64,000 bases of DNA from a virus (IMGVR_UViG_3300032323_001387:96001-160000); one strand, 5' to 3'. Positions 38,267-46,366 are shown, counted from the first letter of the stretch. Notes: generated from the sequence alone by a model not told the origin. Made by a program: numbers and translations.

Positions 38267-38724
38267 GTAATTGGTATAGACAAGTATCGGGCGACATCAC
38301 AACGTTGCCTGATGCTATTTCATATTTCGAATCCGAGTTACAGAGTGCTAGGATAGAAACTAGCCTCAAAGGTAACTTGGAGATGAATAGCAGACTTATG
38401 CCCGGCATTGTCGAGCATAGGTTCAACCAATTACAAGAGATCGAAGCAATTCTAGAATATCTTAATATACAGTTAAGAAAAAAACGAAGCGAAAGCTTTC
38501 GTAAGTTTACAGAAAATTATAACAGAGCATTGACTAGTCGTGACGCAGAACGATATGTTGATGGTGATGCAGAAGTATACAATTGGCAGTTACTTATAAA
38601 TGAATTTTCTATGGTGCGTAACAAATTTTTGGGACTGCTCAAAGCAATCGATGCAAAGCAATTTCAAATTAATAACATTACAAAACTCAGAGTCGCTGGC
38701 ATGGAAGACACTACCCTAGGTTAA
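38263..38724 (+). CDS. uvsY: Recombination mediator UvsY-like
   Basis: Helical; YVDGD, K.FQI.N...LR.AG C-terminus; downstream of uvsX. Confidence 0.8.
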   Translation: MSNWYRQVSGDITTLPDAISYFESELQSARIETSLKGNLEMNSRLMPGIVEHRFNQLQEIEAILEYLNIQLRKKRSESFRKFTENYNRALTSRDAERYVDGDAEVYNWQLLINEFSMVRNKFLGLLKAIDAKQFQINNITKLRVAGMEDTTLG

Positions 38725-38753
38725 TTGACACAAATTGGATCCTTTGCTATAAT
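38725..38753 (+). promoter_or_regulatory. Early promoter (repeat family)
   Basis: TTGACA-caaattggatcctttgc(17)-TATAAT, directly after the uvsY TAA. Confidence 0.9.
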
Positions 38754-38780
38754 ACTTGTATTGTAGTAAAAGGAGTTCAA

Positions 38781-38912
38781 ATGCAGTTCACGTTGATTAC
38801 CCCTAAAGGCAAAATCTATACCTTTTACTTAGAAGCAGTTGCACTCTGCTTCCAACAAGCATATGGTGGTACATTAGTTAATACTTCGGTATTACAAACT
38901 GAAACCGCTTAA
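38781..38912 (+). CDS. 43-aa early microprotein (not in the ORF track)
   Basis: MQFTLITPKGKIYTFYLEAVALCFQQAYGGTLVNTSVLQTETA; AAGGAG SD; own promoter. Confidence 0.8.
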   Translation: MQFTLITPKGKIYTFYLEAVALCFQQAYGGTLVNTSVLQTETA

Positions 38913-38941
38913 TTGACACAAATTGGCATAAGTGTTATAAT
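38913..38941 (+). promoter_or_regulatory. Early promoter (repeat family)
   Basis: TTGACA-caaattggcataagtgt(17)-TATAAT. Confidence 0.9.
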
Positions 38942-38972
38942 ACATTTTAAGTTAACAAAACAGGAGTTTTAG

Positions 38973-40046
38973 ATGGCTAATGTAACAATTTTTGCTGGCG
39001 AGTACCGTGGCACTAAAGTTAAAAACGAAACATTCCGTTTGGTATCTGACATTAAAACAGGCGCCAAAGGTATGTATGTAACAGTTCAGGATAATGGTAC
39101 TCTTGGCTACAAAGGCAAGAGTGTTCGCGTTAAAATTAAAAGCATGGAAGATATCACTGTGAGCGGTCAAACAATGGCAGACATGACAGATGCAGAGCGC
39201 ACTCGTGCAAATAACGATGACAATGTTCTCAGCATTGTTAAACCCAAAGAGCCAGAAGTGTACACAGAAACAGAAGAAGCTGCCATTGAGCGCATTCGTG
39301 AACGTTTTGACATCTTGGACCAAATGGCAGAAGGTACTACTTCAGGTGCAGTTCGCGCTATGATTGTTAGTGGCCCTCCGGGCGTAGGTAAATCCTTTGG
39401 CGTTGAGAAGGTACTTGAGCAGGCTAGTTTGTTTGACAAAATGGCTCAACGCAAGAATCGTTTTGAAGTTGTTAAAGGTGCAATGAGTGCCATTGGCTTG
39501 TATTGCAAACTGTTCCAGTATGCAGACGAAGGCAATGTGCTGGTGTTTGACGACTGTGACAGCATTTTGCTGGACGACTTGTCGCTGAACATCCTTAAGG
39601 CTGCTTTGGACAGTTCTAAGAAGCGTACAATCTCTTGGAACATTGACAGCAATATGTTGCGCCGTGAAGGTGTGCCAGATCGTTTCGATTTTAAAGGCAG
39701 TGTGATTTTCATCACTAACATTAAGTTTGAGCATGTTCGCAGTAAGAAGTTGCGCGACCACTTGGATGCACTTGAGTCACGTTGCCACTATTTGGATCTG
39801 ACTATGGATACCCAGCGTGATAAGTATCTGCGTATTAAGCAAATCGTACAAGACGGCATGTTGAACAGTTATGATTTTGAAGATGGTGCAGAAAACGAAA
39901 TCGTAGAGTATGTATGGGAACAGAAGAATCGTTTGCGTGAGTTGAGCCTGCGTACAGTTTTGAAGATTGCAGACCTGCGTAAGATGAGTGCTACTAACTG
40001 GAAGAAGCTGGCAGAGACAACAATTTTGAAACGTGCAGAAGCATAA
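38973..40046 (+). CDS. AAA+ family ATPase
   Basis: Walker A GPPGVGKS, Walker B LVFDDCD, IFITN, arginine finger ALESR. Confidence 0.88.
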   Translation: MANVTIFAGEYRGTKVKNETFRLVSDIKTGAKGMYVTVQDNGTLGYKGKSVRVKIKSMEDITVSGQTMADMTDAERTRANNDDNVLSIVKPKEPEVYTETEEAAIERIRERFDILDQMAEGTTSGAVRAMIVSGPPGVGKSFGVEKVLEQASLFDKMAQRKNRFEVVKGAMSAIGLYCKLFQYADEGNVLVFDDCDSILLDDLSLNILKAALDSSKKRTISWNIDSNMLRREGVPDRFDFKGSVIFITNIKFEHVRSKKLRDHLDALESRCHYLDLTMDTQRDKYLRIKQIVQDGMLNSYDFEDGAENEIVEYVWEQKNRLRELSLRTVLKIADLRKMSATNWKKLAETTILKRAEA

Positions 40047-40068
40047 TTAACTAACAATGCCCAATTAA

Positions 40069-43825: not shown

Positions 43826-43847
43826 GCAACCGAAAGGTTGCTTTTTT
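43824..43847 (+). terminator. Intrinsic terminator (GAAA loop) overlapping the next -35 element
   Basis: AAGCAACC-GAAA-GGTTGCTT-TTTT. Confidence 0.85.
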
Positions 43848-43873
43848 ATTGACGAGTGTGTATAATTACCTTT

Positions 43874-44857
43874 ATGAAAATTATATGGCCTGTTGAACTT
43901 AAAGAATCTAAATATAGTAAATGGTACGAAGCATTAATATATAAAGCGAAAAATCGTACCATCGAAGGTTATGTAGAAACGCATCATATAATTCCGAGAA
44001 GTTTTGGGGGTAACGATAGTAAGAGTAACTTAGTAAAGCTCACCGCCAGAGAACATTATATTGCCCATGCATTATTATGGAAAATGAAATTTCCAGGCAT
44101 TTATAATAGTAAAATGGCATTTGCATTTAATACGTTCATCAACAAAATGACGACTAAAGTCAGAGGCGTTCACCACACCTATACTATTTCCAGTAGAACG
44201 TACGAAATTTTCAGAAAAGAATATTCGAGACTTCTCAAAGAAAAATACGCAAGAGAAGGTGGAACATTTCTTGGTAGAAAACATTCAGAAGAAACAAAAC
44301 GTAAGATTGGAGAGAAAAGTAAATTAAAAGAATTTAAACGAGGACCAGAAAACCCGCAGTGGGGGAAAAAACAAAACGTCTCTCCAGAAGGTAAAGAAAG
44401 ACGCAAAGCAGCCTCGAAAGAAAGATGGGCAGATCCAGAGTTTAGAGAAAAAATGATTCAAAAGAAAAAAGAATTTCTTCAAACCCCAGCCGGCATCGCC
44501 CAACGTCAAGCAACTAGTCGACGAGTAAAAGGTGTTAAACGCGATCCTGCAATCATGGAAAAATGTGCTTCTGCCAAAAGAGGTAAAAAAGAACACGAGA
44601 TATATTCACCAGAAGCTATTGCAAAAAGAAAAGAAGCACTGAAGAACAGAGTCGTATCGGATGAAGCAAAAGAAAAAATTCGCCAAGGTGCATTAAAAGG
44701 ATGTAAGATGCCAAAATCAGATGATTGGAAGAAACAAATGAGTGAAAGAATGACAGGAATAAAACGCCAAACTTTTGTGTGTGCTCATTGCGGAAAAGAA
44801 GCCGTGTTATCTAATATTAATCGATGGCATAATGATAATTGTAAATTTAAGAAATGA
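43874..44857 (+). mobile_element. Free-standing HNH homing endonuclease with NUMOD3 and C-terminal Zn finger
   Basis: ETHHIIPRSFGG.D...NLV.LTAREHYIAH; GRKHSEETKRKI; CAHCGK...RWH.DNC; start at 43874. Confidence 0.9.
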
Positions 44858-44865
44858 ACAAATTG

Positions 44866-44888
44866 GCAACCTATTAGGTTGCTTTTTT
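44866..44888 (+). terminator. Terminator-like hairpin overlapping the uvsW promoter
   Basis: GCAACCT-att-AGGTTGC-TTTTTT. Confidence 0.7.
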
Positions 44889-44914
44889 GTGGCCTAATAT
44901 GTTATACTACATCT

Positions 44915-46366
44915 ATGACAGTTTGTACAATACATATAAAAGATGAAGTTAATATTAAAATTAGCGGATTAGAAACAGCTACTAGGCGCAGGTTAGAAAA
45001 AGAATTGAAGTTTTTCATGCCATATGCAAGGCATACACCAGCTTATAAACTAGGACGCTGGGATGGCTGTGTTGGTTTCTTTACACTAGGCGGCGCCAGC
45101 TTTTTTAATTTACTAGATAAGATTCTACCAGTAATTGTTGATGAAGGTTATTCAGTTGAGATTGATGATCAAAGGCAACAGCATGACTTCAAGTTTGTTG
45201 AAGTAAATGAAACAACACATGAACAAACAATCTGGCCCAAAGGGCACGTTAACGAAGGCAATCCAGTACTGCTACGTGACTATCAGATTGATGCCATCAA
45301 CAAGTTTTTAACTAATCTACAATGCGTACAAGAGATTAGTACAGGCGCCGGTAAAACAATTACAACTGCCACATTGAGTAAAAGTGTGGAAAGTTATGGT
45401 AGAACATTGGTCATTGTTCCTAACAAAGACCTAGTCAAGCAAACATTAGAAGATTATGAATTACTTGGCCTGGACGTTGGTGTTTACTTTGGCGATAAAA
45501 AAGAACTAGGTAAGACACATACTATTTGTACATGGCAAAGTCTTAACAGTGTACAAAAGAGATTTAAAGAAGGCGAAAGCCCAATCAGCTTGGAAGAGTT
45601 CAGCGAAGACTTAGTGGCAATCATTGTTGACGAAGTTCACCAAGCCAAAGCAGACGTACTTAAAGCATTGTTAAGTGGTCCTTTCTCCAATGTTCCTATC
45701 CGTTGGGGTTTAACTGGAACTATTCCTAAAGAAGATTTTGAGCAACTAGGCTTGGTTGCATGTATTGGTCCAGTGGTAAATAAGATAGCTGCCAAAGACT
45801 TACAAGCCAAAGGAGTGTTGGCAAATTGCTTGGTTAATGTACTGCAATTACAGGACACAGTATCATATAATACATATCAAGAAGAACTAACATACCTGAC
45901 TACCAACGTTAAACGTGTAGACTTCATTGCTGAGTTTGTTAGTAAACTTTCAGAATCGGGAAATACGTTAGTCTTAGTTGATCGAGTTAAAAGCGGCGAA
46001 ATGTTAGTAGAGCGTTTACCTGACAGTATTTTTGTCAGTGGTGCAATGAAAACAACAGATAGAAAAGAGCAGTATGACGAAGTTAAAACAGCTACTAATA
46101 AGATCATTGTGGCTACCTATGGTGTTGCCGCTGTGGGCATTAATATCCCTAGGATTTTTAATCTGGTTCTTTTGGAACCCGGGAAAAGCTTTGTCCGCGT
46201 TATTCAAAGTATTGGACGTGGCATAAGAAAAGCAGAAGACAAAGATCACGTGGAGATTTGGGACGTGACAAGTAGCGCAAAGTTTAGTAAACGACATCTT
46301 ACTACACGAAAGAAATACTATGATGATGCAGGCTATCCGTATCAAGTACAAAAGGTAAAATACTAA
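44915..46366 (+). CDS. uvsW: SF2 helicase UvsW
   Basis: WDG, LRDYQ, TGAGKT, DEVH, GLTGT, QSIGRG.R; start at 44915. Confidence 0.93.
   Translation: MTVCTIHIKDEVNIKISGLETATRRRLEKELKFFMPYARHTPAYKLGRWDGCVGFFTLGGASFFNLLDKILPVIVDEGYSVEIDDQRQQHDFKFVEVNETTHEQTIWPKGHVNEGNPVLLRDYQIDAINKFLTNLQCVQEISTGAGKTITTATLSKSVESYGRTLVIVPNKDLVKQTLEDYELLGLDVGVYFGDKKELGKTHTICTWQSLNSVQKRFKEGESPISLEEFSEDLVAIIVDEVHQAKADVLKALLSGPFSNVPIRWGLTGTIPKEDFEQLGLVACIGPVVNKIAAKDLQAKGVLANCLVNVLQLQDTVSYNTYQEELTYLTTNVKRVDFIAEFVSKLSESGNTLVLVDRVKSGEMLVERLPDSIFVSGAMKTTDRKEQYDEVKTATNKIIVATYGVAAVGINIPRIFNLVLLEPGKSFVRVIQSIGRGIRKAEDKDHVEIWDVTSSAKFSKRHLTTRKKYYDDAGYPYQVQKVKY

Follow-up and report, generated by a model that had tools for sequence, protein, structure and literature searches.

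How might genes be exchanged at a phage locus in which almost the same sequence stands at one gene junction after another? The question is raised by the interval between the uvsY and uvsW homologues of an uncultured jumbo phage, which lies in a 64,000-nt stretch of viral DNA (IMGVR_UViG_3300032323_001387, bases 96001–160000; hereafter the window) taken from a contig of 172,208 bp and 38.5% GC (G000). An earlier reading of the window without database searches (the sequence-only reading) had noticed a promoter-like repeat at several junctions of this interval and had cited, as known, the shuffling of non-essential genes through repeated early-promoter elements in T4-type phages. Its own proposal was an integron-like accretion site at which promoter-plus-gene cassettes are gained and lost, and/or a phage regulator that binds CAAATTGG. 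Our analysis favors the known kind of shuffling, which fits the published model of promoter-early stem-loops (PeSLs). With a probability of about 0.75, the repeats are copies of a standard early promoter-plus-leader module, and genes are shuffled by crossover between modules.

G000 was estimated by CheckV to be 48% complete, which would probably put the whole genome at ~360 kb. It carries homologues of uvsX, uvsY and uvsW, recognized by Pfam or PHROG matches, and its UvsX is 58–68% identical to those of the jumbo phages Phosso, CBB, GAP32 and Atu_ph07, the nearest cultured relatives. A nucleotide search of cultured-phage records returned short helicase and HNH matches only and no close DNA relative. 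For comparison, metagenomic viral contigs were scanned for UvsW, which yielded 80 loci (L-numbers) at 61–94% amino acid identity; both borders, uvsY and uvsW, are present in 60 of these, and all interval distances were taken from those 60. One relative, G001 (233 kb, 65% complete; its interval is locus L099), differs from G000 by ~15–20% in coding DNA. Two further records, G004 and G005, belong to more distant relatives and are those of loci L051 and L027, respectively.

One repeat family stands at four junctions of the interval

Exact matches to TTGACAC(A/T)AATTGG were found at 20923, 38725, 38913, 40069 and 42212 of the window, the five sites named by the sequence-only reading, and with up to two mismatches allowed the window contains seven matches versus 1.46 expected from shuffles. 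A repeat search joined the four sites of the interval into a single 61-nt family with copies at 38722, 38910, 40066 and 42209 (modules 1–4, Table 1). Four copies within 3.5 kb form a cluster (Poisson P ~1e-4). All of them are intergenic and share a layout in which a TAA stop is followed by TTGACACAAATTGG, TGnTATAAT, a leader, and a Shine–Dalgarno sequence (SD) with its ATG. Each of the four sites matches sigma-70 at 12/12 positions, with a 17-nt spacer and TG before the −10 element, and within 36.5–47 kb they are unique in this respect. The stop codon directly abuts TTGACA at three sites, as had been claimed, where it ends uvsY (38722–38724), orf43 (38910–38912) and the S8 protease gene (42209–42211). 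The copies at 42209 and 38910, described earlier as similar for about 60 bp through the SD, proved to be 89% identical over 61 nt in the repeat search, SD included, and in a global alignment their likeness extends into the first codons.

Such an element can be understood as a module in which a very strong promoter of the host sigma-70 type (−35, TGn, −10), as predicted, is fused to the preceding stop codon, and in which the conserved leader and ribosome-binding site would serve the gene that follows. Because stop, promoter and leader are fused, nearly the same ~60 nt recur at many junctions. With its own homologous recombination system, the phage could recombine two such copies, either from the same genome or from those of co-infecting relatives, and these crossovers would delete, insert or swap the intervening genes with the expression signals left intact. 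That the promoters are active and act early, and that crossover proceeds by homologous recombination rather than through a dedicated enzyme, is what we infer from the sequence.

Module copies across the genome

As a marker of the interval, the repeat has to be qualified: the cluster of four is real, but the module is not particular to this place. G000 contains 12 copies across its 172 kb, all on the + strand, and nine of them lie in two clusters, one at 2.0–5.7 kb of the contig and the other in the stretch from uvsY to orf379. A scan of the whole contig for the motif, which the sequence-only reading had proposed as a check, found no copy before the core genes uvsX, uvsY or uvsW; uvsX has a sigma-70-like promoter without the conserved spacer extension, at 36891. 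The genes behind the copies are ORFans, members of PHROG families of unknown function, a pair consisting of a MoxR-type AAA gene and a DUF2201/VWA gene, the AAA ATPase gene and the S8 protease gene. In G001 we counted ~16 copies of the same dialect as in G000, at syntenic and at extra sites.

In a logo of the 28 copies from both genomes, information extends from TAA via the −35 hexamer, TTGACACAAATTGG, TGn and TATAAT to ACATAG in the leader. TAA directly precedes the −35 hexamer in 9/12 copies of G000, and in 7/12 copies of G000 and 8/16 of G001 it is the stop of a reading frame with 50 or more codons; the SD and ATG follow 56–61 nt further on. The leader ACATAGCGTAACAAAACAGGAG recurs in several genomes, where it stands ahead of six or more unrelated genes. 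The MoxR-type AAA ATPase and the DUF2201 metallopeptidase/VWA protein (L081:4196–6983, in the region of the contig start) have one module each, and the pair is kept in G001.

The interval varies in length and gene content

When the interval was aligned across the 60 relatives, the distance between uvsY and uvsW ranged from 1.1 to 9.2 kb, an ~8-fold span, and the gene content was mosaic, with ~50 families of small genes between residents. Families F6/F7, F8, F9, F10, F12, F13 and F17 each occur in at least two loci with differing neighbors. The gain and loss of genes expected from the single sequence is borne out by these relatives, and the interval can be described as a hyperplastic hotspot of both. 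At the position of orf43, for which we detected no homologue in the 80 related loci, relatives have other small genes (F9, F22, F14, F50, F8 and others). The border gene uvsY is 56–97% identical among relatives at the amino acid level.

Not all genes of the interval change. Most of the 80 loci have the AAA ATPase gene between uvsY and uvsW, and, judged by this distribution, it is a conserved resident of the interval and not a mobile cassette. Other residents are the S8 protease gene in a closer clade and, often, orf379 and orf137 there, with the changing small genes around them. The S8 protease was found in the closer clade only and is highly divergent (43–85% amino acid identity); its last residues and the promoter hairpin are conserved despite this divergence. 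The reading frames orf379 and orf137 overlap by one base and co-occur in L016 and L021 at 62–78% amino acid identity, and in far more divergent form in L005 (28% for orf379), from which they appear to travel as a pair. Neither has a Pfam or NCBIfam match.

Breakpoints, hybrid modules and relocated genes

The sequence-only reading had placed breakpoints of gain and loss at the repeat, and we see block ends at modules, hybrid modules and relocation between loci marked by the repeat. Ends of homology blocks were mapped against 16 close loci. Blocks end at 38708–38781 (module 1) and at 42211–42240 (module 4). Homology restarts at 38906–38911 (module 2) in 13 of the 14 informative loci, and at 44848–44857, where the HNH gene stops and a decayed relic of the module probably stands, in L001, L002, L005, L007, L009, L017 and L019.

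Hybrid modules can be read directly from the aligned loci. In the window, L001, L007, L009 and G001, the module behind uvsY has a constant spacer (atcctttgc or actctttgc) and three leaders, each fitting the gene that follows. From −35 to −10, L007 and L009 match module 1 exactly and L001 departs from it at one or two bases; the leader of this module varies with the downstream gene. Among relatives, the leader of module 2 is kept with the AAA gene, and its spacer varies with the gene upstream. The left part of module 4, up to the −10 element, is common to L009 and divergent beyond, and its leader and first codons are 80–90% identical to modules of the AAA gene in relatives; by this comparison, module 4 is an S8-side left part joined to a leader and first codons of the AAA type. 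The N-terminus of orf379 varies among relatives, with the start in L021 being the equivalent of Met18, and the first 17 codons, which are specific to G000, appear to have arrived with module 4. At this position L016 and L021 have no promoter. In L012 the two hairpin arms are mixed, the left one of the L010 type and the right one of the window type. In G001, two insertions (0.9 and 4.1 kb) have their ends, at contig positions 5712 and 76108, exactly at the TTGACA of the copies at 5717 and 76115.

Relocation is likewise observed. The gene at 20980–21417, behind the module copy at 20923, has homologues (44–45% amino acid identity, tblastn) inside the uvsY–AAA interval of L019 and L022–L024, each with its own promoter, and the promoter and leader in L019 are ~78% identical to the copy at 20923. 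A homologue (50% identical) of the gene at 22660–23802 stands between the S8 gene and uvsW in L010, and in G001 this gene is absent as a clean 1.18-kb indel. In relatives, then, the interval houses two genes whose position in G000 is ~18 kb away. The gene at 22660–23802 encodes 382 aa and lacks its own promoter; 8 nt separate its start from the gene before it.

We then compared G000 and G001 over their whole length, using blastn blocks chained with an offset limit and crude gene calls (greedy open reading frames, ORFs). Synteny breakpoints fall at 5/11 module junctions versus 28/181 others (odds ratio 4.6, one-sided Fisher p = 0.024) and, when any sigma-70-like site is considered, at 8/20 versus 25/172 (p = 0.009). 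Modules are a favored joint, and they are one route among several.

A similar record could be left by selection acting as a filter. The modules would then be conserved as strong promoters, genes would turn over anywhere, by illegitimate recombination, through a homing endonuclease or otherwise, and only those events that spare the signals would survive. We consider this unlikely, although part of the evidence suits it and weighs against crossover between modules. Most breakpoints between G000 and G001 lie at junctions that lack such a promoter, where there are many, or inside genes, and several joints lie exactly at the outer edge of the module, between TAA and TTGACA, and not inside it. Some inserts carry no promoter: in G001 (L099:565–1436) and L005 (2572–3440), a promoterless, translationally coupled gene pair (101 aa and 189 aa) stands between the uvsY stop and module 1, and the pair ends in the very TAA that abuts TTGACA. 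The HNH endonuclease gene is itself among the inserts. The module fills the whole intergenic space, and breakpoints in a module are hard to separate from breakpoints at a gene boundary. When 38 modules were pooled, the association of the spacer with the upstream gene was weak (0.46 versus 0.38), as was that of the leader with the downstream gene (0.51 versus 0.46). A notable stem-loop, moreover, is present in only two of the four interval modules (1 and 3).

Because the pooled effect is small, we rely on the individual hybrid modules, which are also the sole argument for placing crossovers within the repeat. These hybrids are joined between the −10 element and the leader or in a hairpin loop, which speaks against a filter on turnover elsewhere. 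So do the occurrence of one leader and promoter before unrelated genes in genomes ~20% apart in coding DNA, the homogenization of the spacer extension within genomes (see below), and the recombination between PeSLs that has been demonstrated experimentally in RB49/phi1 (PMC2839356). Crossover between modules remains the reading that we prefer.

An integron-type recombination site is rejected

In an integron-like system, a site-specific recombinase would capture and excise cassettes at the repeat. All that speaks for this account is the array-like look of the interval, in which unrelated genes are parted by one recurring sequence. We did not detect a match to Phage_integrase (PF00589) or Resolvase (PF00239) in G000 (48% complete) or G001 (65% complete), whereas control genomes gave matches. 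Each cassette has its own promoter and there is no common Pc; the repeat is itself a promoter and not an imperfect palindrome of the attC type, no attI was found, and a search of 36–47 kb against Rfam gave no match. The copies are spread over the genome. The AAA gene, furthermore, is conserved, inserts without promoters occur, and most breakpoints lie off the repeat. With no tyrosine or serine recombinase match in the available parts of the two genomes (48% and 65% complete), no attC and no common promoter, we reject the integron-like accretion site proposed by the sequence-only reading as extremely improbable.

A conserved spacer extension with lineage dialects

Conservation had been said to extend beyond the −35 hexamer into the spacer, and the 28-copy logo agrees: the extension CAAATTGG is invariant or nearly so in these copies from two genomes. 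Sister lineages use other forms, cccAATAATTGACSNAAATTCN in L003, L006, L010 and L012 and TTGACAATAAATCCAATTT in L028. The spacer of G004 contains an inverted repeat, CAAGA-N-TCTTG, that forms a hairpin, and the dialect of G005 reads AAAATTC-N-ATTTTGC. Paralogues within a genome are 76% identical over the 9-nt extension, compared with 63% at orthologous junctions elsewhere (permutation p 2e-4), which indicates homogenization by exchange among copies.

An alternative role for the extension would be that of an operator. In this case CAAATTGG and TAATT across the −35 hexamer (AATT-N6-AATT) would be bound by a phage or host protein that switches a class of promoters, an idea that the near-invariance of the extension invites. 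Sigma-70-like promoters without the extension do exist, as at uvsX, and AATT-GACNNN-AATT is common to the window clade and the clade of L003, L006 and L012. Off promoters, however, the octamer occurs at chance level, five times on the + strand and six times on the − strand versus ~3.4 expected per strand by a base-composition estimate; on the + strand, seven further matches lie in modules, and one more is the relic. Since the octamer is not enriched off promoters, we assign it to the promoter rather than to an operator standing by itself. Copies without the upstream TAATT retain the downstream part, related lineages use other spacer consensus sequences, and no candidate regulator was identified. 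T4 early promoters also carry an extra consensus, which is usually ascribed to contacts with RNA polymerase (PMC2988021). We regard an operator as improbable. It is similarly doubtful that the conserved 8 nt after the −35 hexamer are recognized by a regulator or recombination helper encoded by the phage, or that they serve as a compatibility tag for the exchange of cassettes among co-circulating jumbo phages.

Stem-loops in individual modules

The hairpin of module 3 (ΔG −23.7, z −5.6) is under selection. RNAalifold over eight relatives returned 16 pairs, four of them with compensatory changes, and G.U intermediates. Such covariation points to selection acting on RNA of the + strand, in this case on transcripts that read through from the AAA gene. 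There is no U-run after the hairpin, and we therefore read it as a possible attenuator or stabilizer of 3′ ends rather than a classical terminator. At the same junction, other loci show the form seen in the window, a canonical terminator accompanied by a promoter (L016), or a terminator with no promoter (L014, L021).

In module 1, the spacer and −10 element can pair with the leader and SD on read-through RNA (ΔG −19.4, z −1.8), and RNA started at the promoter is predicted to be open. We considered whether the promoter generally hides the SD of the next gene on read-through RNA and rejected this, the effect being borderline (z −1.8) and confined to module 1. The copy at 20923 is accompanied by a canonical terminator (z −2.2). 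In 7/12 copies, namely modules 2 and 4 and five others, no significant stem-loop was found. One copy outside the window, at contig positions 76115–76170 (L082:1116–1170), has its spacer and −10 element within a 17-bp hairpin followed by a T-run (ΔG −18.5, z −5.0). No ORF with an SD was detected in the next 140 nt. This copy is kept in G001 at 102210 and may be a composite of promoter and terminator or encode a small RNA.

An HNH gene beside a probable decayed half module

At the right end of the interval, the HNH gene lies between two copies of a different kind of module, composed of AAATTRGCAACC-loop-GGTTGC, a T-run, TGnTATAMT and ATG (modules A and B, Table 1). The two copies form a 48-nt direct repeat of 71% identity, or a gapped alignment of 64 nt. 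The homing endonuclease gene is an insertion between these duplicated terminator–promoter modules. L010 is the sole locus of the 80 in which we detected a homologue, which is 37% identical at the amino acid level and lies downstream of uvsW.

The degenerate remnant that had been reported after the HNH stop, TGA-ACAAATTGG, was found again at 44855–44866. This string, TGAACAAATTGG, precedes module B and is kept upstream of the uvsW terminator in L001, L002, L005 and L009 despite differing upstream sequence. In L001 the relic reads TAATTGAACAAAT, one base short of the TAATTGACACAAAT of a full module. It is a reasonable reading that TGAACAAATTGG is the decayed −35 half of a module, and "half PeSLs" have been described in T4-type phages (Comeau et al, 2014, PMC4122927). 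The string could, however, be no more than a piece of the terminator module, which in its other copy has AAATTAAGCAACC.

Comparison with known modular elements

PeSLs are mobile regulatory cassettes of the T4-type phages RB49/phi1, T4/PST and KVP40/nt-1 (Arbiol et al, 2010, PMC2839356; Comeau et al, 2014, PMC4122927). The modules described here resemble them in the order of their parts, from an upstream stop via a near-perfect sigma-70 −35/N17/−10 to the SD and ATG, and in the clustering of copies in hyperplastic regions beside ORFans. Joints of indels and replacements lie at or inside modules, as PeSL crossovers lie between the −10 element and the ATG and within the loops of stem-loops (PMC2839356; PMC4122927). 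Probable decayed "half" modules and a lineage-specific consensus are further points in common, the consensus sequences of PeSLs being lineage-specific as well (PMC4122927). A stem-loop can lie over the −35 hexamer, as in module 3, or over the −10 element, as predicted for module 1, which corresponds to both published subclasses, and the CAAGA-N-TCTTG spacer of G004 has the commonest layout of PeSLs in RB49/phi1.

The differences are that the bearer is an uncultured jumbo phage and not a classical T-even, pseudo-T-even or schizo-T-even phage, that the stop is fused directly to the −35 hexamer with no AT-rich stretch between them, and that two of the four local copies are without a significant stem-loop. 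The conserved part, known here from sequence alone, consists of the 8 nt after the −35 hexamer and the shared leader instead of a G/C stem.

Other systems share some features. The "uber" promoters of T4 early genes (UP/−35/TGn/−10; Hinton, 2010, PMC2988021; Nolan et al, 2006, PMC1524935) likewise combine a full −35, TGn and −10, have conserved positions beyond the known needs of sigma-70, and stand before novel ORFs and conserved early genes. Their −35 element is GTTTAC, compared with TTGACA here, and no A-rich UP region is visible in the modules because coding sequence reaches the −35 hexamer. Lambdoid morons, units of promoter, gene and terminator, are also single accessory genes with their own expression signals, but they lack a single conserved flanking linker as a crossover site, a contrast drawn in PMC2839356.

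We interpret the shuffling in this interval as the way already described for PeSLs, now in a distant lineage of jumbo phages, and not as a new mechanism. Promoter–linker modular shuffling, as in classical T4 relatives, would then also shape the genomes of a distant uncultured lineage. The comparative record is unusually clear, in that one interval is represented by ~60 natural variants and both hybrid modules and moved cassettes are seen. For annotation, the modules mark early transcription units, as predicted, and likely borders of accessory genes such as the secreted protease and the gene pair of unknown function.

Table 1. Genes, modules and hairpins of the uvsY–uvsW interval and further sites (window coordinates)
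Feature	Position	Strand	Composition or matches
uvsX	36940–38007	+	small ORF next, then uvsY
uvsY-like recombination mediator, left conserved border	38263–38724	+	PHROG 231 UvsY-like, E 4.7e-17; Pfam UvsY weak, E 3.6e-4
Module 1	38722–38780	+	TAA (uvsY stop), TTGACACAAATTGG, spacer atcctttgc, TATAAT, leader ACTTGTATTGTAGTAAAAGGAG, ATG
orf43, 43-aa ORFan cassette gene	38781–38912	+	
Module 2	38910–38972	+	TAA (orf43 stop), TTGACACAAATTGG, TATAAT, leader ending in GTTAACAAAACAGGAG, ATG of AAA gene
AAA-type ATPase, PHROG 1250 of unknown function	38973–40046	+	PHROG 1250, E 8e-86; Pfam AAA/AAA_16
Stem-loop, 14 bp	40054–40089	+	−35 hexamer of module 3 in loop
Module 3	40066–40126	+	TTGACACTAATTGG, spacer gcattgtgc, TATAAT, leader, ATG of S8 protease
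S8 subtilase, 694 aa, predicted secreted	40127–42211	+	Pfam Peptidase_S8, E 2.6e-30
Module 4	42209–42272	+	TAA (S8 stop), TTGACACAAATTGG, spacer ttttggtgt, TATAAT, leader ending in AAACAAAACAGGAG, ATG
orf379 and orf137, overlapping pair	42273–43825	+	
Terminator–promoter module A	43819–43873	+	AAATTAAGCAACC-GGTTGC hairpin, T-run, TGTGTATAAT, ATG of HNH gene; terminator-like match 43824–43843
HNH/NUMOD3 homing endonuclease upstream of uvsW	43874–44857	+	PHROG 655 homing endonuclease, E 1.2e-46; GC 36%
TGAACAAATTGG, likely decayed −35 half of module, right border of variable interval	44855–44866	+	
Terminator–promoter module B, before uvsW	44865–44914	+	terminator-like match 44865–44883
UvsW-type helicase, right conserved border	44915–46366	+	Pfam ResIII, Helicase_C; matching genes annotated UvsW in jumbo phages
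Further module copy with upstream terminator and 145-aa gene	20923–21417	+	gene at 20980–21417

Further observations

For the T4 late box TATAAATA we found no enrichment in G000, with 8 copies on the + strand and 3 on the − strand versus ~14 expected per strand; the late promoter of the lineage may differ from that of T4. The S8 protease begins with a signal-like sequence. Over its last ~313 residues, which terminate in Phe, Pfam gave no match; this end of the protein looks like that of an autotransporter, and there is a weak NCBIfam match to the autotransporter peptidase EprS. A repeat of ~200 nt at 104400–106500 of the contig and 129200–134700 of G001 has several matching places in both genomes (blastn, 68–75%).

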